19,374 nucleotides of DNA from the NCBI GenBank assembly GCA_039586365.1, contig JBDHKN010000088.1:1-19374 (forward strand). Reading direction: 5' to 3'. A program made the position numbers and the translations under genes. The first letter of the stretch is position 1, and each line of letters starts with the position of its first letter. This stretch comes from Gemmatimonadota bacterium (GTDB taxonomy: Bacteria; Gemmatimonadota; Gemmatimonadetes; Gemmatimonadales; GWC2-71-9). Positions 1 to 19,374 of the stretch are shown one piece after another. The notes under the pieces were generated by a model, which searched no databases, was not told the DNA's origin, and worked only from the letters and a program-made list of their open reading frames with translations.

Positions 1-43
1 TCGGGGATCAGTGCGTGATTGGACCGAGTGAGAGGAAGAATCG

Positions 44-1045
44 ATGGCTGAGAAGAACGACCGAAAGGTTGGAGCCGTCCTGGTAGTTGGGGCCGGTGTG
101 GGAGGCATGCAGGCCTCGCTGGATCTCGCTGAATCCGGCTACAAGGTCTACCTGGTCGAGAGAGGCCCGTCTATCGGCGGGGTGATGGCCCAGCTCGACA
201 AGACGTTCCCGACCAACGACTGCGCGATGTGCACGCTCGCGCCACGCATGGTCGATTGCGGCGGCCACCTGAATATCGAGAAGCTGACCTACTCCGAGAT
301 AGAATCGATCGAGGGAACAGCGGGCAACTTCAGAGTCCGCGTCAGGAAGAAGGCGCGCTTCGTCGATCCAGACAGGTGCACTGGCTGCGGGGAGTGCGTC
401 CAATACTGCCTTGTCAGAAACAGCCCTTACCTGGAACCGGCCGGGATAGGCGAAATCGCGGAACTGCCGGAAGAGTTGGATGGCCTCAGAAGGATAGTCG
501 AGAAATACAGAGGTCGGAGAGGGGCAATAGTCCCCGTCCTGCAAGAGGCACAGGAGCTGTACAACTACCTGCCGGAAAGCGCGGTCCGGTATCTGTGTAG
601 GGAACTGACCATCCCGCTTAGCCTGGCATTCAGGCTGGCCACCTTCTACAACGCGTTCAGCCTCACTCCCAAGGGCAAGCACGTTCTGCGGGTCTGTATG
701 GGTACGGCTTGCTACGTCAAAGGCGGGAAGAGAATCCTGAGGGCATCTCAGAAGTATCTGAACGTCGAAGTTGGCGGCGTAAGCGACGACAGGGAGTTCG
801 GCCTGGAGACGGTCAACTGTCTTGGCTGCTGCGGTCAGTCGCCCGTAGTGACACTCGACGAAGATGTATTCGGGTACATGAGGGAAACCAGGGTTCCGCG
901 ACTTGGAGAGGATCGGCGAGAAGATCAAGCGAACGATGTCGTTGAGGGAGGGGGAGGGCCGAGCCAAGGTCATCGTCCACATGGGCACGTGCGGCATAGC
1001 CGCCGGAGCCAGGACGGTCATGAAGGCATTGATGGACGAGATTGA
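44..1045 (+). CDS. Fusion of an HdrA N-terminal fragment (FAD-binding motif plus one 4Fe-4S motif) and a NuoE/HydC-like [2Fe-2S] subunit; last ~45 aa probably spurious read-through
   Basis: VLVVGAGVGGMQASLDLA, SIGGVMAQLDKTFPTNDCAMC and RFVDPDRCTGCGECVQYC are HdrA-type motifs. From ~nt 470, LQEAQELYNYLP, ATFYNAFSLTPKGKHVLRVCMGTACYVKG and ETVNCLGCCGQSP are NuoE motifs. SD-like AGAGGA at 31-36. Homology ends near nt 905. Confidence 0.88.
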   Translation: MAEKNDRKVGAVLVVGAGVGGMQASLDLAESGYKVYLVERGPSIGGVMAQLDKTFPTNDCAMCTLAPRMVDCGGHLNIEKLTYSEIESIEGTAGNFRVRVRKKARFVDPDRCTGCGECVQYCLVRNSPYLEPAGIGEIAELPEELDGLRRIVEKYRGRRGAIVPVLQEAQELYNYLPESAVRYLCRELTIPLSLAFRLATFYNAFSLTPKGKHVLRVCMGTACYVKGGKRILRASQKYLNVEVGGVSDDREFGLETVNCLGCCGQSPVVTLDEDVFGYMRETRVPRLGEDRREDQANDVVEGGGGPSQGHRPHGHVRHSRRSQDGHEGIDGRD

Positions 1046-1262
1046 TAGAAGAAACATCGGGGATGTCATCTTGACGATTTCGAGTTGCGCTGGGCTTTGC
1101 AGCCGGGAGCCGATGATTACGGTCGAACTGCAAGGTGAACCAGCAGTCAAGTACGTCGACCTGACTGCTGAGAAGGCGAAGACGGTCCTCGTCGAACATG
1201 TTCTTGGTGGTAAGATCGTCACCGAGTACGCTCTGGCTGCGGGGAGCGAGAGAAGCATCTAG
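903..1262 (+). CDS. Thioredoxin-like [2Fe-2S] ferredoxin (HndB/HydD type); 5' end uncertain
   Basis: IVHMGTCGIAAGA...SSCAGLCSREPMITV...YVDLT...EHV pattern, located between nuoE-like and nuoF-like genes. TTG start lacks a well-spaced SD. Confidence 0.82.
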   Translation: MERIGEKIKRTMSLREGEGRAKVIVHMGTCGIAAGARTVMKALMDEIDRRNIGDVILTISSCAGLCSREPMITVELQGEPAVKYVDLTAEKAKTVLVEHVLGGKIVTEYALAAGSERSI

Positions 1263-1276
1263 GGAGATTTCGAGCG

Positions 1277-4200
1277 ATGGCATACAGAGCAAACGCAATG
1301 ATATGTACGTGTACAAACTGCATATCGAACGGCTCTTTGCGGATAAAAGATGCGCTCGAAGCCGAGATAGAGCGGCGCGGCTTGCAGGATGACGTTCTGG
1401 TCGTTCCAACGGGGGCGAGCGGGCTTTGTGTGCGAGGTCCGATCCTCATAGTCCAACCCGATGGCATCTTCTATCAACGTCTCAGAACGGAGGATATTCC
1501 CTACCTGGTAGAGGAACACCTCCTGAAGGGGAGACCTGTAAGGTCCCTCATGTATGTCCCTCCTGGTGAAGAGGTTCCGATTCCGGAACTGCGAGCGATT
1601 CCATTCTTCAAGGACCAGAGACTTGTCGCCTTGCGGAATCGCGGCATGATCGACCCGGACAAGATGGACGAGTACATAGCCAGAGATGGCTACAAGGCTC
1701 TGGCGAAGGTCCTGACCTCAATGACGCCGGAAGAGGTGATCGCAACGATAAAGGACGCAGGGCTCCGAGGTAGAGGGGGAGCTGGATTTCCGACCGGCGT
1801 GAAGTGGGAACTGTGCAGGAAGTCGCGCGGCGAGCCCAAGTACGTGATATGCAATGCTGACGAGGGTGACCCCGGCGCGTTTATGGATCGAAGCATCATA
1901 GAGGCCGATCCCCACTCCATTCTCGAGGGCATGGCTATAGGTGCCTACGCCATAGGAGCATCCACGGGGTACGTATATGTGAGAATCGAATACCCGCTGG
2001 CGATTGAGAGGTTGGAGAACGCTGTCAGGCAGGCATACGATTCTGGATTGCTGGGAGAAGACATCTTCGGCAGTGGGTTCGACTTTGATGTTGAGATCTT
2101 TCAGGGGGCCGGGGCCTTCGTCTGTGGAGAGGAAACGTCGCTCATCGCCTCCATTGAGGGCAGGCCACCTGAGCCTCGTGTGCGTCCCCCGTTCCCTGTG
2201 CAGTCGGGGCTCTGGGGCAATCCAACGAACATCAACAACGTAGAGACCTGGGCAAACGTCCCGGTCATTATCAACTGGGGGGCGAAGTGGTTTTCGGCGC
2301 TGGGGACCGAGACCTCAAAAGGCACAAAAGTCTTCTCCTTAGCAGGCAACGTCAACAATGCTGGGTTAGTCGAAGTGCCGATGGGCATGACTCTCCGGGA
2401 GATAATCTATGACATAGGCGGGGGGATCCCTTGGGGAAAGAAGTTGAAGGCCGTTCAGACGGGTGGTCCCTCCGGCGGTTTCATTCCGCCCCATTTGCTG
2501 GAGATGCCCGTGGACTATGAGCGCCTGAAGGAGGTTGGCGCGATCATGGGCTCGGGTGGAATGGTCGTCATGGACGAAGACACGTGTATAGTGGATATCG
2601 CGAAGTATTTCCTGGAGTTCACGAATGACGAGTCCTGCGGTAAGTGTACCGCCTGCCGAGAAGGCTCAGAGGTGCTCCTCAAGCTGCTTAGCAAGATCTC
2701 CGATGGAGATGGAGAGGAGACAGACCTGACGCTTCTGGAGGAGCTGGGGGAAGCGGTCAGAGAAGCCTCGATGTGTGGGCTAGGGCAGACTCTCCCCAAT
2801 CCTGTACTGAGCACGGTGCAGCATTTCAGAGACGAATATGAGGCACACATCAAGTACAAGAGGTGTCCGGCCGCAGTCTGCAAGGGCATAATCTCGTCGC
2901 CGTGTCAGCACACCTGTCCTATCGGCCAAGATGTGCCTTGCTATATCGGCTTGATCGCACAAGGAAGGTTCGACGAAGCCGTTCGGATCGTGAGGAGGGA
3001 GAATCCACTACCTGCCATATGCGGCAGGGTCTGTACTGCTCCCTGTCAGGACAAATGCCGCTCAGGTGCGGGAGGTGGGGAGGCGATCTCTATCCGGGCG
3101 CTCAAGCGGTTCTTGGCTGACTACGAACGGGCGAAGGGCCTCAGCCTGACGCCCAAACCGAAAGAGGCGCGACCCGAACAGGTCGCTATCGTAGGCTCGG
3201 GACCCGCCGGACTCACGTGCGCCTACTATCTCGCCCTCGAAGGATATCGTGTCACGATCTTTGAGTCGCTTCCGGTTGCGGGCGGTATGCTGGCGACCGG
3301 AATTCCAGACTACAGGTTGCCCAAGGATCTCCTGAGATATGAGATCGACATTATCAAGAACCTCGGCGTGGAGATCAGGACGAACACGACCGTGGGCAAG
3401 GACGTTCAGCTATCTGATCTGAGGGAGCAATATAATGCCGTATTCCTGGCAGCGGGTGCTCACAAGGGGCTGAAGCTGAACATCGAGGGCGAGGACTCCG
3501 CGCAGGTCATCGATGCAGTGGACTTGCTACGTGCAGTCAATCTTGGAGGCGAGGTCAGTATCGGGGAAAGGGTCGCGGTGATCGGCGGAGGAGACGCCGC
3601 CGTAGATGCGGCTAGAGTGGCAAAGCGCTTGGGCAAAGATGTCAAGGTATTCTACAGGCGAACCAGAGCAGAGATGCCAGCGGCCAGAGAGGAGATCGAG
3701 CAACTGCATCAAGAGGGGATCGAGATTCAGTTCCTGGTGGCACCGGTAAGAGTGCTGCATGAGAATGGAGGGTTGAAAGGAATTGAATGCATCAGGATGG
3801 CGCTGGGAGACATCGACAAGAGCGGCAGGAGAAGGCCGGTTCCGATAGAAGGATCGGAATTCGCGGTCGAGATTGACACTCTGATCCCTGCCATCGGTCA
3901 GGAGCCGGACGTTGTGCCTTTGGTGGACGGCAACGGGCTTAAGCTGTCCCGATGGAGCACTATCGAGGTCGACCTGGAGACCCTGCATGCCGGGGGGGAA
4001 GGGATCTTTGCCGGCGGAGACGTTGTCACCGGCCCCGCCACGGTTGTACAGGCAATGGCTCACGGGAAGACCGCCAGCCAGATGATACACAACTATATCC
4101 AGGGAATCCCGATCGAGAGGCAATACAGTGTGACCCGCCCGGCGATGGATGTGGGGGTCGTTGAACTCACTGACGAAGAGATCGAGAAGCTGCACAGGCC

Positions 4201-4330
4201 TGAAATGCCGCTGCTGCCAGTAGAGGAGCGGACCGGGAACTTCAAGGAGGTGGAGTTAGGCTTCACCGCCGAGATGGCCGTCATGGAAGCGAAGCGGTGT
4301 GTCAGGTGCGACAAAGAGACCGAGGAATGA
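1277..4330 (+). CDS. NuoF/HydB-like FMN/NADH-binding subunit fused to a GltD/NfnB/SudA-like FAD/NAD(P)H oxidoreductase domain
   Basis: NuoF motifs: GLRGRGGAGFPTG, NADEGDPGAFMDRS, GAFVCGEETSLIASIEG, ESCGKCTACREG, SMCGLGQ. GltD-type motifs: PCQHTCP, CGRVCTAPCQDKC, VAIVGSGPAG, GIPDYRLP, VIGGGDAAVD, YRRT, FAGGDVVTGP, EAKRCVRC. SD AGGGAG at 1261-1266. Confidence 0.93.
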   Translation: MAYRANAMICTCTNCISNGSLRIKDALEAEIERRGLQDDVLVVPTGASGLCVRGPILIVQPDGIFYQRLRTEDIPYLVEEHLLKGRPVRSLMYVPPGEEVPIPELRAIPFFKDQRLVALRNRGMIDPDKMDEYIARDGYKALAKVLTSMTPEEVIATIKDAGLRGRGGAGFPTGVKWELCRKSRGEPKYVICNADEGDPGAFMDRSIIEADPHSILEGMAIGAYAIGASTGYVYVRIEYPLAIERLENAVRQAYDSGLLGEDIFGSGFDFDVEIFQGAGAFVCGEETSLIASIEGRPPEPRVRPPFPVQSGLWGNPTNINNVETWANVPVIINWGAKWFSALGTETSKGTKVFSLAGNVNNAGLVEVPMGMTLREIIYDIGGGIPWGKKLKAVQTGGPSGGFIPPHLLEMPVDYERLKEVGAIMGSGGMVVMDEDTCIVDIAKYFLEFTNDESCGKCTACREGSEVLLKLLSKISDGDGEETDLTLLEELGEAVREASMCGLGQTLPNPVLSTVQHFRDEYEAHIKYKRCPAAVCKGIISSPCQHTCPIGQDVPCYIGLIAQGRFDEAVRIVRRENPLPAICGRVCTAPCQDKCRSGAGGGEAISIRALKRFLADYERAKGLSLTPKPKEARPEQVAIVGSGPAGLTCAYYLALEGYRVTIFESLPVAGGMLATGIPDYRLPKDLLRYEIDIIKNLGVEIRTNTTVGKDVQLSDLREQYNAVFLAAGAHKGLKLNIEGEDSAQVIDAVDLLRAVNLGGEVSIGERVAVIGGGDAAVDAARVAKRLGKDVKVFYRRTRAEMPAAREEIEQLHQEGIEIQFLVAPVRVLHENGGLKGIECIRMALGDIDKSGRRRPVPIEGSEFAVEIDTLIPAIGQEPDVVPLVDGNGLKLSRWSTIEVDLETLHAGGEGIFAGGDVVTGPATVVQAMAHGKTASQMIHNYIQGIPIERQYSVTRPAMDVGVVELTDEEIEKLHRPEMPLLPVEERTGNFKEVELGFTAEMAVMEAKRCVRCDKETEE

Positions 4331-4410
4331 GAGGCACAAGATGATCGGCGGCGACGTTGATCTTCGTGCGTTCGCTACACCCTGTCAGCGGTGAGGATGT
4401 TGCAGAGAAG

Positions 4411-4767
4411 ATGAAACTGGAACAAGTAAGACAAATCCTTAATGCAGAGGTGATAACAGGTGAAAACCTGCTATCCAGAGAGGCCACCATGGGGTGCGGC
4501 GCGGACCTGATGAGCGATGTGCTGGCCTATGGCAAGCCGGGTTCTCTTCTCTTGACAGGGCTGACGAACCAACAGGTGGTGCGCACAGCGGAGATGGCGG
4601 ACCTCGTGGCCATCTGCTTTGTCCGCGGCAAGAGGCCGGATGCGGAAACCGTCAAGATGGCGAAGAGCCATGGGTTGCCGCTGTTGTGGACGAAGGTGCC
4701 GATGTTCGAGAGCTGCGGCCGGTTGTACAAGCACGGTCTCGTCGGCGTTTCTGAATACGGGGAATAG
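4411..4767 (+). CDS. DRTGG domain protein
   Basis: MKLEQVRQIL...GADLMSDVLAY...LLLTGLTNQQVVRTAEM...FVRGKRP pattern. ATG at 4411 preferred over the ORF-track TTG at 4357. Confidence 0.85.
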   Translation: MKLEQVRQILNAEVITGENLLSREATMGCGADLMSDVLAYGKPGSLLLTGLTNQQVVRTAEMADLVAICFVRGKRPDAETVKMAKSHGLPLLWTKVPMFESCGRLYKHGLVGVSEYGE

Positions 4768-4783
4768 CAGGAGTGGTGCAGGT

Positions 4784-5713
4784 ATGCCGTTCACCAAGGT
4801 TCAGGAACTGGTCTACGAGATGAAGGTCAACGAGGTGATGACCAGGAGTGTCATCACCGTTGACGCTCGGACACCGATGAGCCAGTTGCGGGAGGTCTTT
4901 CGTGATAAGAAGATCTCGGGTACACCGGTCGTGCAGGATGGCAAGCTCGTTGGCATCATAAGTCTCGAAGATTTCATCAAGTGGCTCTATGGCAGAGAGC
5001 AGAACTCCGTCATCGAGACGAAGATGACAAAGGAGGTGGAGACTCTCTACGATGACGAGCCACTGGTTCACGCAGTCAGCAAGTTCGACAGGTTGGGCTT
5101 CGGTCGGTTTGCGGTCATCGAGCGGCAAACCGGCAGGTTGGTCGGTGTGATTACGAAGGGAGACATCATCGCGGGGGTACTGAAGAAACTGGAGATCGAC
5201 TATCACGAGGAAGAGATACATCGCTACCGTGCAAGTCACATATTCGAGGACATTGTGGCCGACAGGACGACGCTCGTGTTTGAGTATGACGTCATAGGCC
5301 AAGATTTCGATCGAGGTGGGGAGAGCTCCAGCCGACTGAAACGCACACTGAAGCGCCTAGGCTTGGATCCCGTCACGGTTCGCCGAGTGGCCATAGCCAC
5401 GTATGAGGCGGAGATGAATCTCATCGTATTCACGGAGGGCGGGAAAATAGTGGCTCGTGTCGAGCCGGGCCGAGTAACCATGGAAGTGGATGACTCGGGT
5501 CCGGGAATCGCCGATGTCGAGAAAGCCCTTCAGCCAGGATATTCGACTGCACCGCAGTGGGTTAGAGACCTGGGGTTCGGAGCTGGGATGGGCCTGAACA
5601 ATATCCAGAAGTGCGCGGACCATATGGATATTGTTTCGGCTCCAGGCAAAGGTACTCACCTCAAGATATCCATCTTGACGGGAGATGAGCGTGAAGCTGG
5701 CCGAGATAGTTGA
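4784..5713 (+). CDS. CBS-pair domain plus RsbT/RsbW-like (anti-sigma factor type) Ser/Thr kinase domain
   Basis: CBS motifs KVNEVMT..ISGTPVV..LVGIISLED and LVGVITKGDI. GHKL motifs YEAEMN, DDSGPGI, GYST, GFGAGMGLNNI, GKGT. ATG at 4784 follows AGGAG/AGGT. Confidence 0.88.
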   Translation: MPFTKVQELVYEMKVNEVMTRSVITVDARTPMSQLREVFRDKKISGTPVVQDGKLVGIISLEDFIKWLYGREQNSVIETKMTKEVETLYDDEPLVHAVSKFDRLGFGRFAVIERQTGRLVGVITKGDIIAGVLKKLEIDYHEEEIHRYRASHIFEDIVADRTTLVFEYDVIGQDFDRGGESSSRLKRTLKRLGLDPVTVRRVAIATYEAEMNLIVFTEGGKIVARVEPGRVTMEVDDSGPGIADVEKALQPGYSTAPQWVRDLGFGAGMGLNNIQKCADHMDIVSAPGKGTHLKISILTGDEREAGRDS

Positions 5714-6035
5714 GAAGCTCGATCTGGCGGTCCGAACCGCTGGCGGGCGTCTGGGTAGGGAGGTCACTGCAGGATATGCCAGCGATCTCATGAGCGATGT
5801 GATCGCGCACGCCAAGCCGGGAACGCTCTGGGTGACACTGCAGATCCATCAGAACATAGTTGCAGTGGCCAGCATGAATGAGCTTGCCGGAATCGTGCTG
5901 GTAAACGGTCGCGAGCCGGAGGCGGAGACGATCGAAAAGGCGGAAGCCGAGGGTCTGCCGATAATGGTGACGCCGCTGCCGACGTTTGAGGTAGTCGGCA
6001 GGCTCTACAGCCTGGGGATCCCGGGAATCGCCTGA
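5691..6035 (+). CDS. Second DRTGG domain protein
   Basis: GYASDLMSDVIAH...LWVTLQIHQNIVAVA pattern. GTG at 5691 is 6 nt after GGGAG (5680-5684); ATG at 5685 is the alternative start. Confidence 0.85.
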   Translation: MKLAEIVEKLDLAVRTAGGRLGREVTAGYASDLMSDVIAHAKPGTLWVTLQIHQNIVAVASMNELAGIVLVNGREPEAETIEKAEAEGLPIMVTPLPTFEVVGRLYSLGIPGIA

Positions 6036-6065
6036 GGAAGGCGAGGCGGGCCGCCGGAAGACTGG

Positions 6066-6782
6066 ATGAGGCAACTGAGAGCAGACTTGCACGTGCACAC
6101 CTGCCTTTCTCCGTGTGCGGAGCCCGAGATGGTGCCAACCGCGATCGTCAAGCGGGCAAAGCGGATAGGCTTAAACATCATTGGCGTATGTGATCACAAC
6201 TCGGCCGAGAACGTCGGTGCTGTGGTCAGAGCAGGGCAGCGAGAGAACCTGTCCATCATAGTCGGAATGGAGATCACCTCCCGTGAAGAGGTGCACATTC
6301 TGGGCCTGTTCGGTGATGAGGACCCCTTGCTGCGTCTTCAAGACCTGGTTTACGAGAACTTGCCTGGGGAGAACGACCCGGAAGCCTTCGGCCCTCAGAT
6401 GGTTGTAGACGAGTTCGACAGCGTTGTGGGATCGACTACGAAACTCCTGATCGGAGCCACTACCTTCTCGCTGGAGGAGACGGTGAACGCGATCCATGAC
6501 GCCGGAGGACTGGCAATCGCCGCACACATCGACCGTGAGCGGTTCGGCCTGATCGGGCAGCTGGGGTTCATCCCCGAGGGACTTCCCCTGGATGCTCTGG
6601 AGGTTTCGCCCCGCGCGTCGATCGCCAACTGGAACGGGTTCCCGGTAGTCAGCTCTTCGGACGCCCATTTCTTGAACGACATTGGCAAGAGCTCTACCTG
6701 CTTCTTGCTCGAGGAAGCAACGCTTGAGGAGATCGCAAAGGCACTCAGAAACGAGGATGGTCGGAGGATAGTGTGCGGCTAG
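6066..6782 (+). CDS. PHP-family metal-dependent phosphoesterase
   Basis: DLHVHTCLSPCA, CDHNS, GMEITSREEVH, AHIDR and SSDAH metal-binding motifs. Confidence 0.92.
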   Translation: MRQLRADLHVHTCLSPCAEPEMVPTAIVKRAKRIGLNIIGVCDHNSAENVGAVVRAGQRENLSIIVGMEITSREEVHILGLFGDEDPLLRLQDLVYENLPGENDPEAFGPQMVVDEFDSVVGSTTKLLIGATTFSLEETVNAIHDAGGLAIAAHIDRERFGLIGQLGFIPEGLPLDALEVSPRASIANWNGFPVVSSSDAHFLNDIGKSSTCFLLEEATLEEIAKALRNEDGRRIVCG

Positions 6783-7247
6783 ATGGAAGATTTTGCGCTT
6801 CACATCTTGGACATAGCCGAGAACTCCATTGCTGCTTCAGCGAAGAGAATCGAGATTCTGATCATTGAAGATACGATGAATGACCTTCTGTCTATCGAGA
6901 TCAGAGACGACGGTAAGGGCATGGATGCAGAGACCCGTGAAAGAGCTCTAGATCCTTTTTTTACGACGCGGACGACGCGCCGGGTTGGCTTGGGTATTCC
7001 GTTGCTGGCTCAGGCGGCTAGGGAAAGCGACGGAACCATCGAGATCATCTCTGAGCCGGGGAAAGGGACTACAGTCAAGGCTTGTTTCCGTCACAGTCAC
7101 CCAGACCGCAAGCCGTTGGGGGACATCGCTGAGACGGTGCGCACGATAATGGCCGGGAAAGCGGAGTTGGAGCTCAAATACGAGCACAGGATAGACGGCT
7201 CTGTGTATCGGTTGGACACGAGGGATCTGAAGGCAACCGATGCGTAG
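6783..7247 (+). CDS. Stand-alone HATPase_c (histidine-kinase-like ATPase) protein
   Basis: LHILDIAENS (N box), DDGKGM (G1), DPFFTT (F box), VGLGIP (G2), HPDRKPLGD. Starts immediately after the PHP stop codon. Confidence 0.88.
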   Translation: MEDFALHILDIAENSIAASAKRIEILIIEDTMNDLLSIEIRDDGKGMDAETRERALDPFFTTRTTRRVGLGIPLLAQAARESDGTIEIISEPGKGTTVKACFRHSHPDRKPLGDIAETVRTIMAGKAELELKYEHRIDGSVYRLDTRDLKATDA

Positions 7248-7300
7248 GGTATGGCCCGGTTGCGTGAGCGCGAGGGACCTTCCTGCACAGGGTATGTGAG

Positions 7301-10300
7301 ATGGCAATACTGACCATTGACGGTGTGGAAGTCGAGGTTCCAGAGGGTTCGACGGTACTCCAGGCGGCGGAAAAGCTGGGCGTCAAGATACCTACTCTCT
7401 GCCACCATAGGTCCTTGGCACCCTACGGCGCCTGCCGCCTGTGCCTTGTGGAGCTGGAGGCCGCAGGTGGGTCAAAAATCGAGGCTTCTTGCGTCTATCC
7501 AGCCCTGGAAGGCCTCGTGGTCAAGACCGACACGGAGAGAGTTCTCAAGACTCGTAGCATCATGATGGAATTGCTGCTGGCCCGCTGCCCGGAGGTAGAG
7601 TCGCTGAAGCAGCTAGCGAAGAGTCTGGGGGTCGAAGACACCCGCTTCCCGAAGAAGGATGAGGATTGCATCCTGTGCGGTCTGTGCGTCCGCGTATGCC
7701 AGGAGCGGATGGGGGTTGGCGCCATCAACTTCGTCAACCGTGGTTCATCCCGGAAGATCTCGTCTCCCTACGACAGGCACTCGCCTATTTGTATGGCGTG
7801 TGGTGCCTGTCAAGTTGTCTGCCCGATGGAGGTAGTCGATCTGTCCGAGGTCACCCTCAACAAACCCAGACCCATAATGGCTGATTATGACGTGGGTCTG
7901 ACCCAACGGTCTTCCATCTACATACCGTTCCCTCAGGCTATACCTAAGGTCGCAACGATCGATCGTGATACCTGCATGCATCTGCTTACAGGCCTTTGCA
8001 GGTCCTGTGAGAACTTCTGCCAGGCGCAGGCGATTGACTTCTCGCAAAAGGACGAGATCGAAGGAATCGATGTCGGTGCGGTGGTCTTGGCGCCCGGATT
8101 CGAGCAGTTCAATCCTGAACTGAAGAAGGAATTCGGCTACGGCAGATACCCCAACGTCGTCTCCAGTCTCCAGTTCGAGCGGATCCTTTCCGCCAGCGGG
8201 CCGTATCTCGGGAAGGTGCTCAGACCATCCGACCTCCAGCATCCGAAGAGGATCGCGTGGATCCAGTGCGTCGGCTCGCGAGAGGTGGAGCGCAACTACT
8301 GCTCCTCCGTCTGCTGCATGTACGCGACGAAGGAGGCCGTTATCGCCAAGGAACACGAGCCCGACCTCGACTGCACGATCTTCTACATCGACATGCGTGC
8401 GTTCGGTAAGGGGTTTGATGCGTACTATTATCGTGCCAAAGAGCTGGGCGTCAGATACGTCCGCTGTTCTCCTTCGTCGATCAAGGAAGTTCCTGATACG
8501 AACAACCTGAGGATCACCTATCAGCGGGAGGATGGCGAGCGCGTCACAGAAGAGTTCGACATGGTCGTTCTCTCCACTGGTCTGGCTCCTCCTAAGGAGG
8601 TGCGTGATCTGGTGCAGAAGTTCGGGATCGACCTCAACCAGCACGGTTTCGCCGCTACAGGGACGCTGGCGCCTGTCGAGACGTCGCGACCCGGGATCTA
8701 TGTCTGCGGGCCGTTTGCTGGGCCCAAGGACATCCCCGAGACGGTGATGGAGGCCTCGGCCAGTGCCTCGAAGGCGATGGCACTTCTGGCGGAGGAACGA
8801 GGCTCGCTAATCAAGGGCAAGGAGTACCCACCTGAAAATGATGTGACGGGCCAGGAACCGCGCATCGGCGTGTTTGTCTGCCACTGCGGCAGGAATATCG
8901 GCGGCGTTGCCGATGTGCCTTCGGTGGTCGAATACGCGAGGACGCTGGCCAACGTCGTCTATGCGGAGGACAATCTCTACACGTGCTCAACTGACACGCA
9001 GGATAAGATCAAGGAGATGATCGCGGAGCACGACCTCAACCGCGTGGTAGTGGCGTCGTGCAGCCCGAGGACCCATGAGCCTCTGTTCCGCAACACGTGT
9101 CGGGAGGCCGGTCTCAACGAGTACCTGTTCGAGATGGCGAATATCCGCGATCAGTGCACGTGGGTCCACATGAGTGAGCCGCAGAAGGCGACACGGAAGT
9201 CGAAGGACCTGCTGCGGATGGCCGTGGCCAAGGCGAGGTTGTTGGAGCCCTTGCACAAGGGCAGCCTGAAGGTGAGCAACGAAGCCCTGGTGATCGGGGG
9301 AGGTATGGCGGGCATGACCGCCGCTCTCAACCTCGCCGAGCAGGGGTTCCAGGTGCACCTCGTGGAGAAAGAGGAGGAACTGGGAGGGAACTTCAATCAC
9401 ATACGCAGCTTGCTCAACGGTGGGAACCCTCAGCGAACACTGACTGAGACCGTCGAAAGGGTCAAATCTCATCGCCGGATTAACGTCTATCTGGGGAGCA
9501 CGGTCTCGGCGGTTGAAGGATCGGTAGGCAACTTCGCCTCCACGATATCGCAGAACGGTACGGAACAACAGGTGGCGCACGGTGTCGCGATCGTGGCTAC
9601 CGGGGCGACCGAATACGAGCCGACCGAGTACCTCTACGGTGAGCATCCGCGGGTCCTGACACAACGTACTCTGGAGGAGTGGATCTTCGAGAACAGGGCC
9701 GAGCTTCAGGAGCTCAAGTCGGTCGTCATGATTCAGTGTGTGGGTTCAAGAGATGAGGAACGGCCATACTGCAGTCGGATTTGCTGTTCGCAGGCGGTGA
9801 AGAACGCCATCGCCCTGAAGGACCTACGTCCGGAGGCGGCTGTGACTGTTCTCTATCGTGACATACGGACGTACGGTCTGTACGAAGAGTATTACAGAAA
9901 GGCGCGAGAGAAGGGTGTGCGGTTCGTCCGATACGAGGAGGATCGGAAACCTCAGGTGTCCTCCAGCAATGGCGTGCTTCGTGTGTCCACTGCGGATCCC
10001 ATTCTCAATGCTACACTGCATATAGACTGCGACATGGTGGTGCTAGCTCCTGCCATCGTACCGAGGGGCGATACGGAGCAGGTGGGCAAGTTGTTCAAGG
10101 TGCCGCTTAACCAGGACAAGTACTTTCTCGAGGCCCACATGAAGTTGAGACCGGTGGATTTCGCTACCGACGGCGTGTTCATGTGCGGCCTGGCCCACTG
10201 TCCCAAGTCGGTCGAGGAGAGTATCGCGCAGGCGGACGCCGCCGCAGCCAGGGCTGCAACGATCCTCTCCAAGGACGAGATCGAGCTCGAGGCTACCATA

Positions 10301-10546
10301 TCTGAGGTTGTGGATGCGAACTGCGACGGGTGTGCGTACTGCATCGATCCCTGCCCGTATAACGCGCTCACGCTGATCGAATACATGTATCAGGGCAGTA
10401 TCAAGAAGGCCGTCGATCGAGATGCAGCGCTTTGTAAGGGCTGCGGCGTGTGTCAGGCGACATGCCCCAAGAAAGGGATATATATCCGCAACTTCAGGCT
10501 TGAGCAGTTGAGCGCGATGGTAGACGCTGCATTGGAAGTGGCCTAA
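7301..10546 (+). CDS. hdrA: Large HdrA-family flavo-FeS protein: NuoG/HydA-like N-terminal FeS domain, C-terminal part of one HdrA, then a second HdrA unit
   Basis: NuoG-type: IPTLC, GACRLCLVE, ASC, CILCGLCVRVC, CMACGACQVVCP. HdrA copy 1 from ~7880: GLTQRSSIYIPFPQAIP, YGRYPNVVSSLQFER, IQCVGSR..YCSSVCC, GPKDIPETV. HdrA copy 2 from ~8860: RIGVFVCHCG, ASCSPRTHE, NIRDQC, GGGMAG, QCVGSR..YCSRICC, and a C-terminal 2x[4Fe-4S]. Confidence 0.92.
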   Translation: MAILTIDGVEVEVPEGSTVLQAAEKLGVKIPTLCHHRSLAPYGACRLCLVELEAAGGSKIEASCVYPALEGLVVKTDTERVLKTRSIMMELLLARCPEVESLKQLAKSLGVEDTRFPKKDEDCILCGLCVRVCQERMGVGAINFVNRGSSRKISSPYDRHSPICMACGACQVVCPMEVVDLSEVTLNKPRPIMADYDVGLTQRSSIYIPFPQAIPKVATIDRDTCMHLLTGLCRSCENFCQAQAIDFSQKDEIEGIDVGAVVLAPGFEQFNPELKKEFGYGRYPNVVSSLQFERILSASGPYLGKVLRPSDLQHPKRIAWIQCVGSREVERNYCSSVCCMYATKEAVIAKEHEPDLDCTIFYIDMRAFGKGFDAYYYRAKELGVRYVRCSPSSIKEVPDTNNLRITYQREDGERVTEEFDMVVLSTGLAPPKEVRDLVQKFGIDLNQHGFAATGTLAPVETSRPGIYVCGPFAGPKDIPETVMEASASASKAMALLAEERGSLIKGKEYPPENDVTGQEPRIGVFVCHCGRNIGGVADVPSVVEYARTLANVVYAEDNLYTCSTDTQDKIKEMIAEHDLNRVVVASCSPRTHEPLFRNTCREAGLNEYLFEMANIRDQCTWVHMSEPQKATRKSKDLLRMAVAKARLLEPLHKGSLKVSNEALVIGGGMAGMTAALNLAEQGFQVHLVEKEEELGGNFNHIRSLLNGGNPQRTLTETVERVKSHRRINVYLGSTVSAVEGSVGNFASTISQNGTEQQVAHGVAIVATGATEYEPTEYLYGEHPRVLTQRTLEEWIFENRAELQELKSVVMIQCVGSRDEERPYCSRICCSQAVKNAIALKDLRPEAAVTVLYRDIRTYGLYEEYYRKAREKGVRFVRYEEDRKPQVSSSNGVLRVSTADPILNATLHIDCDMVVLAPAIVPRGDTEQVGKLFKVPLNQDKYFLEAHMKLRPVDFATDGVFMCGLAHCPKSVEESIAQADAAAARAATILSKDEIELEATISEVVDANCDGCAYCIDPCPYNALTLIEYMYQGSIKKAVDRDAALCKGCGVCQATCPKKGIYIRNFRLEQLSAMVDAALEVA

Positions 10547-10565: not shown

Positions 10566-10982
10566 ATGGCGAACGAGGACTTCGAACCGATCATCATCGG
10601 CTTCTGCTGTAATTGGTGTTCATACGCGGGAGCGGACCTCGCTGGTGTGTCGCGACTTCAGTATCCGACGAATCTGCGGATCATCCGGGTGATGTGTTCC
10701 GGGATGGTGCATCCGAACCTGGTCATCGACGCGCTCACGAAAGGCGCCGATGGCGTTCTGATATGTGGCTGCCATATCGGAGACTGTCACTATCTCGAAG
10801 GGAACCTGAAGACCGAGGGTCGCAAGGAGGCCATCGAGCTCATGCTGGAGGATTTCGGCGTGGAGCCCGAGCGATTCAGATTGGAATGGGTATCGGCGTC
10901 CGAGGGTCCTCAGTTCGCCGAGGTGGTGCGGGAGATGAGCGAGGCTGTTCGTGAACTGGGGCCCAGCCCCTATAAAGCCTGA
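10566..10982 (+). CDS. mvhD: MvhD/FlxD-like [2Fe-2S] subunit
   Basis: FCCNWCSYAGADLAG, RVMCSG, GCHIGDCHY, EWVSASEG, LGPSP motifs; directly after hdrA. Confidence 0.96.
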   Translation: MANEDFEPIIIGFCCNWCSYAGADLAGVSRLQYPTNLRIIRVMCSGMVHPNLVIDALTKGADGVLICGCHIGDCHYLEGNLKTEGRKEAIELMLEDFGVEPERFRLEWVSASEGPQFAEVVREMSEAVRELGPSPYKA

Positions 10983-11317: not shown

Positions 11318-11728
11318 ATGAGTAGAACTCGGATACTGATCATCGATGATGACCCGGATTTCGTGGATGCCACAAAAGCGATCCTCGAAACAGGGCAATA
11401 CGAGGTAAGCTGTGCCTACAACGAGGACGAGGGCTTGCAGAGTTTGGAAGAAGAGATTCCCGACCTCATCATATTGGACATCATGATGAGGAGATTCGCC
11501 GAAGGCTTTACCTTCGCACGGGGGATCAGGAAGGATCCACGGTACCAGAAGATACCGATCATCGTAGCGACATCGGTACGTGAACAGACGGGGTTCGATT
11601 TCCCGGGCGAGCCCAAGCACCCGAAGTTCTTCCCCATAGACGAGTTCATGGAGAAGCCTCTTGAGCCGCAGCTTCTCTTGGAGACGATTGAGCGGCTGCT
11701 CGCGAAGAGAGATGACGATCCTGCGTAA
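11318..11728 (+). CDS. Single-domain response regulator (REC)
   Basis: ILIIDDD, PDLIILDIMM (phospho-acceptor Asp), IPIIVATS and FMEKP motifs; no output domain. Confidence 0.93.
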   Translation: MSRTRILIIDDDPDFVDATKAILETGQYEVSCAYNEDEGLQSLEEEIPDLIILDIMMRRFAEGFTFARGIRKDPRYQKIPIIVATSVREQTGFDFPGEPKHPKFFPIDEFMEKPLEPQLLLETIERLLAKRDDDPA

Positions 11729-11762: not shown

Positions 11763-12716
11763 ATGCCAGTAAAAGTGGCAGAAGAGTGGCTGAACATCTG
11801 CGGAGGATGTGAGGTCACGATCCTGGACATCGGCGAGCCGCTTCTGGACCTGCTGTCCGAGCTCGACTTCGTCCACATGCCGGTGTTGATGGACCACAAG
11901 TACTTCGGGCAGACAGGGGAGAAGACGGAACTCGAGATCCCCGAGGCGGATGTGGGGATCATCTCCGGAGGTGTCAGGAACGAGAAGGAGAAGCACGTCA
12001 CCGAGGAGATGAGAAAGAAGTGCGGCACGCTCATTGCCCTCGGATCGTGTGCGTGCTACGGGGGTATTCCTGCCCTCGCGAACATGTTTCCTCTCGAGGC
12101 CCTCTACCAGAAGGTGTACAGGGAGTCGAAGACTACAGACTCCGCTGACACGCCGACGGAGAATATCCCGCCGCTGCTAGACCGGGTGTACGCGGTGGAC
12201 GAGGTTGTGCCTGTCGACGTGTATATTCCGGGCTGTCCCACAAACCCGGACATCATTGTCAAGGCACTCACTGCGCTTCTGGAGGGCAAGTCCTTCGAGC
12301 TTCCCGAGCGAAGCGTGTGTGACGAGTGCCCACTGAAACGGGAGAAGAAGGCTGCAGGCGGCGAGATCAAGAGGACCCTCGAGTCGGTTGACTTCAAACA
12401 AGACGCGCCTTGGGAGCATACAAGGTGCTTCATGGAGCAGGGGTACCTGTGCCTGGGGCCCGTCACCCTGGCGGGTTGTGGCCATAAGGAAGGAGGGAAC
12501 GGAGTAACGGTCCCGCGTTGTATCAGGGGCTATATGCCGTGTCGGGGATGTTTCGGCCCGATCCGCAAGGGGGCCAACCCCATGGTTGACATGATGAGCG
12601 CGATCTCATCTATCGGGCTGGACGCCAAGCAGGTAGAGGATAGACGAGCACTGTTGAACAGGTACATCGGCGGTCAGAACCGACTCAGGCCGCTACCTGA
12701 GCGGCCCAAGAGATAG
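11763..12716 (+). CDS. mvhG: [NiFe] hydrogenase small subunit, MvhG type
   Basis: WLNICGGC, GSCACYGGIP, PGCP, VCDEC, CFMEQGYLCLGPVT..GC, CIRGYMPCRGCFGP. No Tat signal seen. Strong SD (GGAGG) upstream. Confidence 0.93.
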   Translation: MPVKVAEEWLNICGGCEVTILDIGEPLLDLLSELDFVHMPVLMDHKYFGQTGEKTELEIPEADVGIISGGVRNEKEKHVTEEMRKKCGTLIALGSCACYGGIPALANMFPLEALYQKVYRESKTTDSADTPTENIPPLLDRVYAVDEVVPVDVYIPGCPTNPDIIVKALTALLEGKSFELPERSVCDECPLKREKKAAGGEIKRTLESVDFKQDAPWEHTRCFMEQGYLCLGPVTLAGCGHKEGGNGVTVPRCIRGYMPCRGCFGPIRKGANPMVDMMSAISSIGLDAKQVEDRRALLNRYIGGQNRLRPLPERPKR

Positions 12717-12728
12717 GGGGCTGGACAG

Positions 12729-14168
12729 ATGAAAACGATCACGCTTGCTCCAGTAACCAGGATCGAGGGCCACGCCAAGGTGACGATCAACCTTGACGAC
12801 GCCGGGAATGTTGCCGACACGTTCGTCAACGTCGTCGAGCTGCGTGGCTTCGAGAAGTTCTGTATCGGCAGGCCCGTAGAGGAGCTTCCGCGCATCGTGA
12901 CGAGTATCTGCGGCGTATGCCCATGGTCGCATCACTTGGCTTCAGCGAAGGCCAATGATGCGGTGTTTGGCGTGACGCCACCGAGTGCAGGGAGAAAGCT
13001 CCGCGAGTTGTGTAATGCGATTGCCTATACCGAGGAGCACATCCTGCATTTCTTCTTCCTCGCAGGCGCGGACTACGTAATGGGTCCGGACAGTGACTAC
13101 TCGGTGAGGAACGTCATAGGCATCGCTCAGACTCATCCCGAGATCGGAAGGCAGGTGGTTCGCAACCGACACCTCGGGGCACAGATGCTAAACATTGTCT
13201 CAGGGAAGTCGATTCACCCTGTGACCGCCGTACCGGGCGGATTCAGCAAGCCGTTGACCGAGGCTGAGCGGAAAGAAGTCCTTGCCAAGGCGAATGAGGT
13301 CCTGGAGTTCGCCAAGTTCGCGATCGCGTTCGCCAAGGAGAACATCTTCCCGAAGTACCTGGATGTCGTGCAGACAACCGGGGTCATTACCACGGGCTTT
13401 CTCGGCACGGTGACCGATGACGGGACGATGGACCTCTACGATGGCAAGGCGCGGCTGATGAAGCCCGATGGCACGTACGAGGAGTTCACGTACGATCAGT
13501 ATACAGAGCATATCGGAGAGCACATCGAGCCCTGGACCTACCTGAAGTTCCCGTATGCGAAGAAGTGGGGCCCGTTCTCGATGGATCTGGACAATCCGTC
13601 AGGGATCTATCGGACGAACACGCTCGCCCGCATGAATGTCTGTGACAAGATCAGCACCCCACTGGCCCAGAAGGAGCTCGAGGAGTTCCGCGAGAAGTTC
13701 GGCAGGCCGGTTCAGCTGACGTTACTGTACAATTGGGCGAGGCTGATCGAGCTGCTCTACAATGCCGAGAAGGCGGTTGAGCTTCTCAACGACCCTGAAA
13801 TTACGAGTACGGATACCAGGGTGCCGGTGACCCCGCGGGCGGCACGGGGTGTGGGGTGCGTTGAGGCGCCCAGAGGCACGTTGATCCACGACTACGAGAC
13901 GGATGAGAACGGGCTGGTCACGGACGTCAACCTCATTGTTGGCACCACGCACAACAATGGGCCCATTAATATGTCCGTAAAACAGGCGGCACAGACTCTG
14001 ATAAAGGATGGGAACTACGATCAGGGCATTCTCAACAAGATCGAGATGGCCATACGTGCCTATGATCCGTGCCTGTCCTGCGCGACGCACGATCTCTCCG
14101 GCAGAATACCGGTGAAGATCGAGATCCGGAACTCGCAGGGGGAAGTGATTGACACCATAGCCAATTGA
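12729..14168 (+). CDS. mvhA: [NiFe] hydrogenase large subunit, MvhA type (group 3c-like)
   Basis: PVTRIEGH, RGFEKFC.GRP, L1 ICGVC, VEAPRGTLIHDY, L2 RAYDPCLSCATH followed by a 25-aa C-terminal extension. Confidence 0.95.
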   Translation: MKTITLAPVTRIEGHAKVTINLDDAGNVADTFVNVVELRGFEKFCIGRPVEELPRIVTSICGVCPWSHHLASAKANDAVFGVTPPSAGRKLRELCNAIAYTEEHILHFFFLAGADYVMGPDSDYSVRNVIGIAQTHPEIGRQVVRNRHLGAQMLNIVSGKSIHPVTAVPGGFSKPLTEAERKEVLAKANEVLEFAKFAIAFAKENIFPKYLDVVQTTGVITTGFLGTVTDDGTMDLYDGKARLMKPDGTYEEFTYDQYTEHIGEHIEPWTYLKFPYAKKWGPFSMDLDNPSGIYRTNTLARMNVCDKISTPLAQKELEEFREKFGRPVQLTLLYNWARLIELLYNAEKAVELLNDPEITSTDTRVPVTPRAARGVGCVEAPRGTLIHDYETDENGLVTDVNLIVGTTHNNGPINMSVKQAAQTLIKDGNYDQGILNKIEMAIRAYDPCLSCATHDLSGRIPVKIEIRNSQGEVIDTIAN

Positions 14169-14310: not shown

Positions 14311-14802
14311 GTGAGGACCGTGGCCGACTGGTACAACAAGCGGACCCTGATCCTGGGATGCGGGAACGTGTTGTTCGGCGATGACGGATTTGGCCCGGCG
14401 GTGGCCGAGTACTGTGAGCGGAACTGCGCGATCCCTGCGGACGTGTGCGTCTTGGATGTGGGGACCTCGGTCCGCAACATTCTCTTCGACGTATTGCTGG
14501 CTGATGTGAAGCCTTCGAGGATTGTGATAGTGGACGCGGTGGACTGTGGCCGCGAACCGGGCGATCTCTTCGATGCGGACATCGACTCTCTCCCCGAGAC
14601 GAAGACCGACGATTTTTCCATGCATCAGGTTCCCACCTCCAATCTGCTTCGTGAGCTGAGAGATCTGTGCGGCGTAGACGTCTCGGTGCTGGCGTGTCAG
14701 GTGGCCCGCATACCGGAGGAGGTGTCGCCGGGGCTCTCGCAGCCGGTTGCGGGAGCCGTTGAGCGAGCTGCGGAGATCCTGGCCCAGGCACACTTCAAAT
14801 AA
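14311..14802 (+). CDS. Hydrogenase maturation endopeptidase (FrhD/HybD-like)
   Basis: LILGCGNVLFGDDGFGP, LDVGT, IVDAVD and FSMHQ motifs. AGGGAGGT at 14301-14308. Start is GTG 14311 or GTG 14320. Confidence 0.92.
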   Translation: MRTVADWYNKRTLILGCGNVLFGDDGFGPAVAEYCERNCAIPADVCVLDVGTSVRNILFDVLLADVKPSRIVIVDAVDCGREPGDLFDADIDSLPETKTDDFSMHQVPTSNLLRELRDLCGVDVSVLACQVARIPEEVSPGLSQPVAGAVERAAEILAQAHFK

Positions 14803-14875: not shown

Positions 14876-15020
14876 TGAACGGTCCCCACATTCTTCCGCG
14901 CAAAAGATGCCCCGCTTGGGATGCTTTGCCTCAACTCTTCCGAGTTGGTTTCAGGCACATCGCTGCCCGTAAGTAGAGATCTCAAGAGGCCACGACCGCT
15001 TGCGCATGGAGTCAGGCACG

Positions 15021-16985: not shown

Positions 16986-16999
16986 ACGGAGAGCCGACT

Positions 17000-18052
17000 A
17001 TGGAATCGGTCACAGCGCAGGTCATCGCCAGGGCCAGAGTCGGCGCGTGGATAGAGCGGCTGATGGCCGAGGCCGAGGTCATAGCGCCGGTCCTGGCGCA
17101 CGGCGGGGACGAGGTGTTCGCAGCGATCCAGTCTCCCGACGAGGTCCTTTGGGAGTTCGCCAACCCCGTGCACCCACCCAAGCAGTTCCTCCTGCCGCAG
17201 ACCGATCCCGTTGTGGCGATTCGGCGCGCCGGCAACGGGTATGCGCTCGAACCCATTGTGGATGAGCGCCGCCGCATCCTGTTGAACATCCGGAGCTGCG
17301 ACGTGACCGGCCTCGCGTTCTTGCGGCGCGTGCACGCAGCCGACTTGCCCGACGACTCTTACCTGCGGCGCGCGGCCGCCGTGACCGTCGTCTGCCTTGC
17401 ATGCTCCCAGCCGTGTCCGCTGGGGTTCTGCGTTTGCAGCGCTGCGGGGCCCTTTGCCAGAGAGGGCTACGATGTGCAGCTCAGCGACATGGGAGACCGC
17501 CTGCTGGCCGAGCCCGGCAGCGAGCGTGGGGAAGAGCTGCTCAGCGCCGCGGGCGATCTTTTCCGCCCCGCGACGTCGGAGGAGCTAGCACGGCGACACG
17601 ACCTGGAGGAGCAGGCGAAGCGGCTCTTCGGTGAGGAGACGTGCCACTTCGCCTCGGCCATGCGACGTGTCTCGACCGGTCGGGTCGCTGACGAGTTGTG
17701 GGCGAGCATGACGGATTGGTGCCTCGAGTGTGGCGCCTGCAATTTCGTTTGTCCGACCTGCTACTGCTTCTCGGTGAAGGACCGGCGTGATGGCGATGGG
17801 TGGTTGCGCTGTCGCACCTGGGACTCCTGCCAGTACCCGGCGTTCACCCGGGAGGCCTCGGGTCACAACCCCCGGGAGGAGCGCAAGGATAGGATCAAGC
17901 GGCGCTTCTTCCATAAGGTTAGCGCGCAGTACTTCCAGCGCGACGGCGTGGTCGGCTGCGTGGGGTGCGGCAGGTGCATCGAGGTTTGCCTCGGCACTAC
18001 TGACATGCCGGCCGTGGTCGCGGCGATCCGCAAGGGGGAATGGCATGGATAG
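17000..18052 (+). CDS. AsrA / sulfhydrogenase-beta / FlxB-C-like FeS protein
   Basis: PPKQFLLP, IRSCD, CLECGACNFVCPTCYCF, WDSC, RRFFHK, CVGCGRCIEVC. ATG 17000 is 8 nt after GGAG. Confidence 0.9.
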   Translation: MESVTAQVIARARVGAWIERLMAEAEVIAPVLAHGGDEVFAAIQSPDEVLWEFANPVHPPKQFLLPQTDPVVAIRRAGNGYALEPIVDERRRILLNIRSCDVTGLAFLRRVHAADLPDDSYLRRAAAVTVVCLACSQPCPLGFCVCSAAGPFAREGYDVQLSDMGDRLLAEPGSERGEELLSAAGDLFRPATSEELARRHDLEEQAKRLFGEETCHFASAMRRVSTGRVADELWASMTDWCLECGACNFVCPTCYCFSVKDRRDGDGWLRCRTWDSCQYPAFTREASGHNPREERKDRIKRRFFHKVSAQYFQRDGVVGCVGCGRCIEVCLGTTDMPAVVAAIRKGEWHG

Positions 18053-18866: not shown

Positions 18867-19374
18867 GCCTGGCAAAGGAGCTGGCCGACCGCTTGAGAGG
18901 CTCGGTCGTCGTGATCGGGATCGGCAACCCGCTGCGCGGCGACGATGCCGCTGGCTGCGAGGTGGCGCGGCGACTCCAGGGCCGCAGCACCGCGCTGGTG
19001 GTTAACGCCGAGGAGATCCCTGAGAGCCATCTTGTCCGCATCGCGGCGGCCCGTCCTGACACGGTGTTGTTTGTCGACGCGGTTGACCTGGGCGCGGCCC
19101 CGGGCTCCCTGGCAGTGGTCGAGGCACAGCAGATGGCCGGCTACTGCCCGTCCACTCACCGTGTGCCGCTCGGCCTGCTGATGGAGTGCTTGCGTCGCGA
19201 TACGGCCGCCGACGTGTTCCTCGTGGCGGTGCAGCCGGGGCGAATCGGCTTCGGCGAGCCGATGAGTGCCGAGGTCGCGGCCAGCATTACGGTGTTCATC
19301 GAGATGCTTGAGGGCCTCCTGCCGGCGCCCCCTGCAGGCGCGGGCTCACGCGGCGCGGCGAAACTCGAGGGGAG
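18863..19374 (+). CDS. hycI: Second hydrogenase maturation endopeptidase, HycI-like; no stop codon within the window (absent from the ORF track)
   Basis: Translated by hand: MSLAKELADRLRGSVVVIGIGNPLRGDDAAG...NAEEIPE...FVDAVDLGAAPG...STHRVPL...VQPGRIGFGEPMS. ATGA overlap with the previous stop; AAGGAG at 18849-18854. Confidence 0.88.
   Translation, partial: MSLAKELADRLRGSVVVIGIGNPLRGDDAAGCEVARRLQGRSTALVVNAEEIPESHLVRIAAARPDTVLFVDAVDLGAAPGSLAVVEAQQMAGYCPSTHRVPLGLLMECLRRDTAADVFLVAVQPGRIGFGEPMSAEVAASITVFIEMLEGLLPAPPAGAGSRGAAKLEG

Follow-up and report, generated by a model that had tools for sequence, protein, structure and literature searches.

An HdrA divided between two genes, each fused to part of a Bfu-type NADH module, in a Gemmatimonadota contig

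Introduction

Several described systems combine HdrA with other redox modules. In HdrABC-MvhAGD of methanogens (PDB 5ODC), HdrA is a single-chain homodimer that reduces free ferredoxin or polyferredoxin, and an NADH module is absent. In HdrL of Desulfobacterium autotrophicum (PMC2702500), type III HdrA (PMC12054007) and HdrA9-11 of ANME (PMC9012536), an NAD(P)H module interrupts the ferredoxin that is inserted in HdrA. The BCRII complex, Bam[(BC)2DEFGHI]2 (bioRxiv 10.64898/2026.04.10.717634; Schut et al. 2022, PMC9304861), contains a tandem HdrA with one bifurcating FAD in its first unit. Both in HdrA (PMC9012536) and in BamE (bioRxiv 2026.04.10.717634), low-potential electrons exit through the inserted ferredoxin, and HdrA Glu356 and Lys409 are described as key flavin residues (PMC12054007). 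Here and below, statements taken from these papers refer to the sections of each that were surveyed. We analysed a Gemmatimonadota contig of 19,374 nt (GCA_039586365.1, JBDHKN010000088.1; "the window", which is the whole contig), in which an hdrA gene appears in two pieces, ORF 44 and ORF 7301, with NuoE/NuoF/NuoG-like genes between and fused to them. The operon context is hdrCB...mvhD-mvhGA, in the operon itself or in its closest relatives.

HdrA in two pieces

The split and its contents comprise the following features:

44..418, plus strand: HdrA N-half, with Rossmann beta1/GxGxxG, Cys60-x-x-Cys63 and the first ferredoxin motif (alignment to HdrA)
467..898, plus strand: NuoE/HydC/BfuC domain, continuing the HdrA N-half as an in-frame fusion, with [2Fe-2S] ligands C218, C223, C259 and C263
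903..1262, plus strand: thioredoxin-like [2Fe-2S] ferredoxin (fdx), start lost in the assembly; weak PF01257 match, kept in relatives
1277..4330, plus strand: NuoF/HydB-type FMN subunit, with a GltD/NfnB-like FAD, NADP(H)-type domain replacing the C-terminal ferredoxin
4357..7247, plus strand: five accessory genes (DRTGG, CBS-HATPase, DRTGG, PHP, HATPase), inside the split
7301..7834, plus strand: NuoG/HydA-like (BfuA-type) domain, with A1 [2Fe-2S] and A2/A4 [4Fe-4S] motifs, A3 absent
7877..8845, plus strand: HdrA C-half, flavin unit 1, with C225/233/236/240, Glu293, Lys344 and C323/334/338/339, GxGxxG absent
8852..10546, plus strand: remainder of the tandem HdrA, with an N-terminal-type domain (aa 518-655), flavin unit 2 and the C-terminal ferredoxin

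An earlier note on this DNA had read ORF 44 as an HdrA start that switches to NuoE, and ORF 7301 as a NuoG-type start in which HdrA resumes near nt 7880 without a GxGxxG for its first copy. Alignment and motif scanning agree with this reading throughout. ORF 44 aa 12-124 corresponds to HdrA 146-258 of PDB 5ODC (E 2.5e-40), and aa ~142-285 matches HydC/NuoE. ORF 7301 aa 1-180 matches the N-termini of BfuA, HydA and NuoG, and the stretches aa 163-443, 518-750 and 899-1075 correspond to 5ODC HdrA 245-510, 2-235 and 475-647, respectively. The halves appear to overlap by 14 residues (HdrA 245-258) because the NuoG-type CxxCxxCxxxCP mimics the first HdrA ferredoxin motif; HdrA-specific sequence restarts at aa ~193-199 (nt ~7877). 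A pattern scan of ORF 7301 found GKGFDA at aa 369, part of the conserved AFGKG loop, and GGGMAG at aa 666, with no Rossmann GxGxxG upstream of the latter.

The cut lies between the two Cys motifs of the inserted ferredoxin (C112/115/118/122 in ORF 44, C225/233/236/240 in ORF 7301), so this 2[4Fe-4S] ferredoxin is complete only when both chains are counted. The flavin domain is likewise divided over ORF 44 and ORF 7301 and not contained in one polypeptide. An N-terminal-type domain and a C-terminal ferredoxin are also present. In ORF 44, the GxGxxG (aa 16-21) and C60/C63 are invariant in all 107 aligned sequences, and this Cys pair is equivalent to HdrA Cys197/200 and BamE Cys59/62. In ORF 7301, E293 and K344 (HdrA E356/K409) are invariant in 48/48, and the Lys409 equivalent is present in each of the 68 C-halves in which the motif was located (69 examined). 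The Lys of the second flavin unit is retained in only 34 of 48. Counted through the junction, the flavin Lys falls at ~278, compared with Cys59/62 and Lys280 in BamE, so the halves sum to a BamE-type tandem HdrA.

At the level of sequence, these results confirm ORF 44 and ORF 7301 as complementary halves of one tandem HdrA, with the conserved FAD and cluster ligands divided over two chains. They support the earlier proposals that the split lies in the ferredoxin insertion of a tandem hdrA with in-frame fusion at both ends and, together with the co-occurrence and predicted complex described below, that the FAD site is built from two chains. By analogy with characterised HdrA, the two-chain protein would bind FAD and carry out electron bifurcation.

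Occurrence in other genomes

The earlier note had proposed searching genomes for HdrA(N)-NuoE and NuoG(N)-HdrA(C) fusions, and the two do occur together. We chose 46 metagenome loci by the C-half junction (15 cut, 31 with sufficient upstream DNA) and 19 genome loci by the N-half-NuoE fusion (5 cut, 14 with sufficient downstream DNA). In these counts, which are not dereplicated (L134 and L150 appear to be duplicates), the N-half was present in 31/31 informative junction-selected loci and the C-half in 14/14 informative loci selected from the other side. A further 14 genome regions were picked for their long contigs, and 12 have the full gene order. In one exception (G139), the free N-half and nuoE lie 24 kb off on the same contig; in the other (G135), they lie far away on a gapped scaffold, and no nuoF was seen next to either piece.

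The pairs take three forms. Form 1 (n=37, including the window) has an N-half-NuoE fusion and a tandem C-half. Form 2 (n=7) has a free N-half gene, with a TGA codon at Cys63, a separate nuoE and a tandem C-half. Form 3 (n=7) has a canonical long N-half-NuoE and a short C-half and thus splits a canonical single HdrA. Each of the 51 complete pairs carries the N-terminal-type domain on one chain and not on the other. The NuoE fusion that had been noticed earlier is real but dispensable, as Desulfobacterales-type loci have the HdrA N-piece as a small free gene before nuoE.

Both fusions are common among the closest matches: 115 of the best 120 ORF 44 relatives carry both FAD and NuoE Pfam labels (nearly all are 289-311 aa long), and the best 120 relatives over the ORF 7301 junction have full coverage at 64-100% identity. 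The C-half junction was found in 56/201 genomes of the sulfate-reducer order of G061 (itself counted; its locus, L031, is named Desulfobacteraceae) and in 8/301 genomes of the window's phylum (the window's genome counted), so its occurrence in the phylum is patchy; among 60 related genomes, none had a full-length ORF 44 match. Named hosts include Planctomycetota, Acidobacteriota, Cloacimonadota, Spirochaetes, Bacillota, Ignavibacteriota, Gemmatimonadota and one archaeon. All are metagenome-assembled genomes (MAGs), and no cultured carrier was named in the 10 clusters looked up.

Among 62 N-half loci, hdrB is directly upstream in 26, a qmoC-like gene holds that position in 8, and mvhGA is present in 30; other neighbours of MvhD are Flx or MetVF. 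In L003, L004, L009, L013-L016 and L018, the QmoC-like membrane gene stands upstream instead of hdrCB, which implies quinone as the high-potential partner in those lineages. An FrhB/FdhB-like gene directly precedes the HdrA N-half or the tandem HdrA in L007, L008, L010, L027, L035, L127 and L128, and in L007 and L010 it is accompanied by rhodanese and sulfur-transporter genes. In L021 (8606-16843), glycine-cleavage-H-like domains are found upstream of the N-half and fused at the C-terminus of the C-half, which suggests a lipoyl carrier as redox partner.

Predicted complex

A structure of ORF 44 (1-283) with ORF 7301 (1-655) and FAD was predicted, as the earlier note had also proposed. The pass mark used is reached by 116/157 solved pairs and 2/215 mismatched pairs. 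The pair scored an ipSAE of 0.87 (best of three controls 0.00), the runs share at least 90% of contacts, and partner pLDDT is at least 79. In the model, ORF 44 strand 12-15 pairs with ORF 7301 260-264, the two ferredoxin motifs are in contact, and NuoE 191-201 contacts BfuA 37-38. The two chains are therefore predicted to rebuild one FAD fold. We read this as geometric feasibility and not as binding, because the halves of a split gene often pass on account of their resemblance to known structures.

The nested module

The gene content that the earlier note had placed between the halves stands, with two refinements: the NuoF gene is a NuoF-GltD fusion, and the split also encloses the block of five DRTGG/CBS/PHP/HATPase genes. 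Using the FMN-site motif criteria of PMC7311640, the BfuC [2Fe-2S] and BfuB FMN-site motifs (A232/M234, F367, GGPSG) are present, and the window's NuoF carries the bifurcating-type motifs AFM, AGAF and GGPSG. In BfuA, clusters A1, A2 and A4 are present (C34/45/48/64, C123-133, C164-174), and the A3 motif is absent in 69/69 C-halves examined. In every C-half aligned, the last BfuA cluster motif ends ~20 residues ahead of the inserted-ferredoxin sequence. We take the fdx product (903..1262) to resemble HndB/HydD.

Relatives vary in the NuoF C-terminus: among 68 NuoF rows, 47 have both B3/B4 motifs, 12 are GltD fusions, and 9 are truncated or could not be assigned by pattern. At the NuoF N-terminus (window 1277-1430), the variant CTCTNC...GASGLC stands for CxGTxC...GCxGFC, and it recurs in L001, L102, L109, L126, L129, L130, L135, L136 and L139. 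Another module of nuoE, nuoF-gltD and free nuoG', this one lacking HdrA, lies elsewhere in the host assembly (C9:6382-12757), with a glutamate-synthase-like gene after it.

The accessory block is optional (25/62 loci). Its order between nuoF and nuoG' (DRTGG/CBS-HATPase/DRTGG/PHP/HATPase) looks like a kinase-phosphatase switch, and PHP-HATPase and HATPase-BfuA fusions occur in L109, P0185 and P0200. A literature search on the block found no description of it.

An exchangeable slot

The earlier note had pictured a block inserted into hdrA. The split and fusions are borne out, but the comparison with sister operons points to a widespread exchangeable cassette and not to a one-off insertion. Operons that are syntenic in other respects carry either GltD (HdrL/type III HdrA) or no insert in this slot. 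For example, L015 (split) and L041 (GltD) share 83-91% DNA identity on both sides of the cassette, and sister operons that differ only in the cassette are also seen in other lineages (L007/L027 and L031/L066/L074). The GltD insert begins ~35 residues downstream of the split point. On a quick HdrA-core tree (125 rows), split, GltD-inserted (HdrL) and intact tandem forms are interleaved, and the starred branches force at least 7 changes of the split-tandem label, so a one-off insertion of single origin is unsupported. This interleaving and the syntenic sister operons support the HdrA inserted-ferredoxin site as an exchangeable cassette slot, as judged from sequence comparison.

A block without HdrA (nuoE-fdx-nuoF-DRTGG-PHP-HATPase-nuoG') in L078 is a plausible donor form. 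There may have been one split that spread by recombination, or several splits; a quick BfuA-domain tree, in which there were just three free outgroups, is too weak to distinguish single from multiple origins.

Proposed electron flow

Starting from the demonstrated gene content, complementary halves, split FAD and cluster ligands and co-occurrence, an electron path can be drawn by analogy with HdrABC-MvhAGD and BamE. The two-chain HdrA, Bfu module, HdrBC and Mvh hydrogenase would form one enzyme with two bifurcating flavins in series, a proposal to which we give an even chance. Electrons from H2 would pass from MvhA through MvhG and MvhD to the C-terminal ferredoxin and on to the two-chain FAD. 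The high-potential electron would leave via HdrC/HdrB to a disulfide, for which DsrC is the candidate, as the host carries dsr genes. The low-potential electron would pass from Cys60/63 over the two cross-chain [4Fe-4S] clusters to A4/A2/A1 of the fused BfuA, and not to free ferredoxin. Within the FMN module, these electrons would be shared between NAD+ and a further acceptor, which would be NADP+ in the window (through the fused GltD domain) and ferredoxin in most relatives (via B3/B4).

Such an arrangement could act as gearing. Using potentials from PMC9304861 Table 1 and PMC9012536, we compute a low branch of -446 mV for 10 Pa and -387 mV for 1 Pa H2, with the acceptor set at -145 mV, a CoM-S-S-CoB stand-in and not DsrC's own potential. 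At these H2 pressures, the low branch would be too weak for ferredoxin (-500 mV), but it would come near to or suffice for Bfu entry at -390 mV (NAD/Fd) or -330 mV (NAD/NADP). Somewhat more tentatively, these loci may represent a widespread enzyme class, with the HdrA low-potential exit as an exchangeable socket and the Bfu cassette as a two-stage gearbox, in which two high-potential electrons are spent per ferredoxin electron. If so, anaerobes of sediments, with some quarter of one sulfate-reducer order among them, could reduce ferredoxin or NADP+ from NADH or at ~1 Pa H2, where single-stage bifurcation would fall short. Sulfate reducers and other sediment anaerobes would thereby have a route to low-potential reductant when H2 is very scarce or when NADH is the source.

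Several points weigh against bifurcation in series. The direction of electron flow is not fixed by sequence, the potential used for the acceptor is borrowed, and the predicted complex may have passed because it resembles the solved HdrA and HydAC. The MvhD partners vary (Mvh, Flx, MetVF), so H2 is not a universal donor, and no MvhD partner was seen in 24/62 N-half loci. Many hosts (Phycisphaerae, Cloacimonadota and Spirochaetes MAGs) may be H2-producing fermenters. The window's own FMN site may not bifurcate, because its BfuB (NuoF) lacks the B3/B4 ferredoxin domain, with GltD in its place, and its N-terminal B5 [2Fe-2S] region has the variant pattern, with four Cys in shifted positions. The B3/B4 clusters are held necessary for Bfu bifurcation (PMC9304861, PMC11406978). 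For GltD-inserted HdrA, the opposite role of the same port has been proposed, with NADH as the mid-potential donor (PMC12054007).

The alternative that survives best is reverse flow, which we consider unlikely. NADH and reduced ferredoxin (or NADPH) would be confurcated by Bfu and enter HdrA at the split ferredoxin, where thiol or quinol electrons (HdrBC, QmoC-like) would join them in reducing the MvhD partner, yielding H2 or methylene-THF reduction via MetVF. The structural evidence fits this equally, HdrA confurcation has been argued for ANME (PMC9012536), BamGH is a confurcating input, and the partners include metVF and flx. However, disulfide reduction is the expected direction in a dsr-containing host, and making H2 from ferredoxin-level electrons conserves no energy by itself.

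Rather less probable again is an exchange of ports, in which Bfu supplies mid-potential electrons via the inserted ferredoxin, and bifurcation at the FAD has HdrBC as its high branch and MvhD-MvhAG, with H2 evolution, as its low branch. This has been proposed for type III HdrA with mvhADG (PMC12054007), the two cassettes are interchangeable, and confurcated electrons at ~-390 mV fit a mid-potential entry. The type III proposal is itself a hypothesis, however, and the inserted ferredoxin is the low-potential exit in solved HdrA and in BamE, with every residue that defines the low-potential route conserved here.

[quoted passage not shown] The module set is that of BamE-F-GHI, in which BamI passes electrons to E1/E2 and BamF. 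We regard this as improbable, given the ~20-residue distance between the last BfuA cluster motif and the inserted ferredoxin, the modelled contact of BfuA with the partner chain's ferredoxin/linker region and the fact that MvhD is already partnered with MvhGA or Flx.

Accuracy of the assembly

The window carries one defect of its own:

898..899, no strand: 57-nt deletion that removes the nuoE stop region and the fdx start (comparison with relatives)

Both junctions of the split are spanned by independent contigs from other runs with ~99%-identical DNA (X2 record 8 covers 191-898, and X1 record 3 covers 898-8325). The X1 contig carries the 57 nt that are absent at nt 898 (record 7428->7486), and comparison with the relative L102 gives the same gap. 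Because of this deletion, ORF 44 reads 333 aa with a frameshifted tail (expected ~292 aa, the length of its closest relatives), and the fdx gene start is lost. The deletion is private to the window and might cripple nuoE/fdx in this strain, a further point against function of this copy.

Misassembly, which the earlier note had named as a way its reading could fail, or a decayed relic is very hard to credit: the window is an entire MAG contig with a private deletion, but other runs' contigs bridge both junctions, the ligands are invariant, and there are hundreds of intact relatives, some on multi-megabase chromosomes. Both are thus refuted for the family, and only this strain's copy may be damaged.

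Remaining features of the window

Outside the split, the following features were found:

1..18, plus strand: hdrB 3' end (SGISA-stop), cut at the contig start (window 1-411 vs L101 2313-2723, 86.6%)
10566..10982, plus strand: MvhD adaptor (PF02662, 4e-54)
11318..11728, plus strand: single-domain response regulator
11763..14168, plus strand: MvhG and MvhA of an F420-non-reducing-type [NiFe]-hydrogenase (best models VhuG and VhuA)
14311..14802, plus strand: hydrogenase maturation protease

The last hdrB codons at nt 1-18 are an addition to the earlier note, whose observation otherwise holds; L101 HdrB terminates in GITA-stop at the equivalent position. HdrB of three relatives retains both CCG motifs. 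Elsewhere in the host assembly, only weak hdrB matches were found; the operon's own copy is truncated by the contig start. The host genome also has apr-qmo-dsr genes (annotation judged by eye).

From 14900 to 19374, GC climbs from ~58% to 67-70%. The genes there encode a formate-dehydrogenase-like molybdopterin-fold protein, AsrA/FlxB-like and AsrB/FlxA-like proteins and a second hydrogenase protease. The Cys/Sec-His site of the formate-dehydrogenase-like protein appears to be substituted. In L101, the start of the same formate-dehydrogenase-like gene is located after its protease.

Comparison with known systems

No solved structure has this layout, PDB matches covering the HdrA and BfuA parts separately. 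A description of a split HdrA with NuoE/NuoG fusions was not found in the literature searched, although Appel et al. 2021 (a review of HdrA) and Pereira et al. 2011 may mention one. Present annotations (FAD-dependent oxidoreductase, NuoE family, HdrA) conceal the layout.

With HdrABC-MvhAGD, the locus shares hdrC, hdrB, the HdrA ligands, mvhD, mvhG and mvhA, in the operon or in its closest relatives, and it differs by its divided HdrA and its NADH module. With the Bfu family (HydABC, StnABC/Nfn-Bfu, Wor-Bfu 9MQX), it shares BfuC, the BfuB FMN motifs and BfuA A1/A2/A4. A DPD_II/FAD domain in place of B3/B4 has been reported before, in Hydrogenedentota subtype I BfuB (PMC11406978), and none of the Bfu types in the surveyed sections has HdrA fused to BfuA and BfuC.

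HdrL and type III HdrA occur in the same operon contexts and interleave with the split form on the HdrA tree. They differ in having a GltD/NfnB domain inside one chain, whereas here the insert is a multi-gene FMN module that leaves HdrA in two chains; the fusion partner of GltD is NuoF and not HdrA, so the in-chain GltD of type III is lacking. The sister operons (without insert, with GltD insert, with Bfu insert) form a natural comparison for the role of the HdrA ferredoxin port, and the sharing of one flavin fold and two iron-sulfur clusters by chains from different genes would be a natural assembly switch.

In its working, the locus would most resemble BamE-F-GHI of BCRII, the closest known system, and HdrL, but it belongs to neither. 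BCRII shares the tandem HdrA, the MvhD adaptor, an HdrBC-like exit and a HydABC-like module with an A1/A2/A4-type small subunit. In BCRII, BamE is one chain, the separate BamGHI feeds the C-terminal ferredoxin/BamF entry, and electrons leave the inserted ferredoxin towards BamC/B. In the present locus, HdrA is split, Bfu is fused at the inserted ferredoxin, a BamB-like gene is absent from the window, and a hydrogenase stands at MvhD. By gene content, the locus is not a BCRII, as HdrA is split and no match to BamB (tungsten AOR family) was found in the 18 window ORFs or 112 neighbours scanned. The combination of modules is already known from BCRII (BamE-F-GHI); the novelty lies in the split and in the choice of port. 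The BCRII preprint (April 2026) claims two distinct bifurcation modules in one complex as previously unreported. If bifurcation in series holds, the present family would be a second and far more widespread case of two bifurcation modules, with a topology opposite to that of BCRII.

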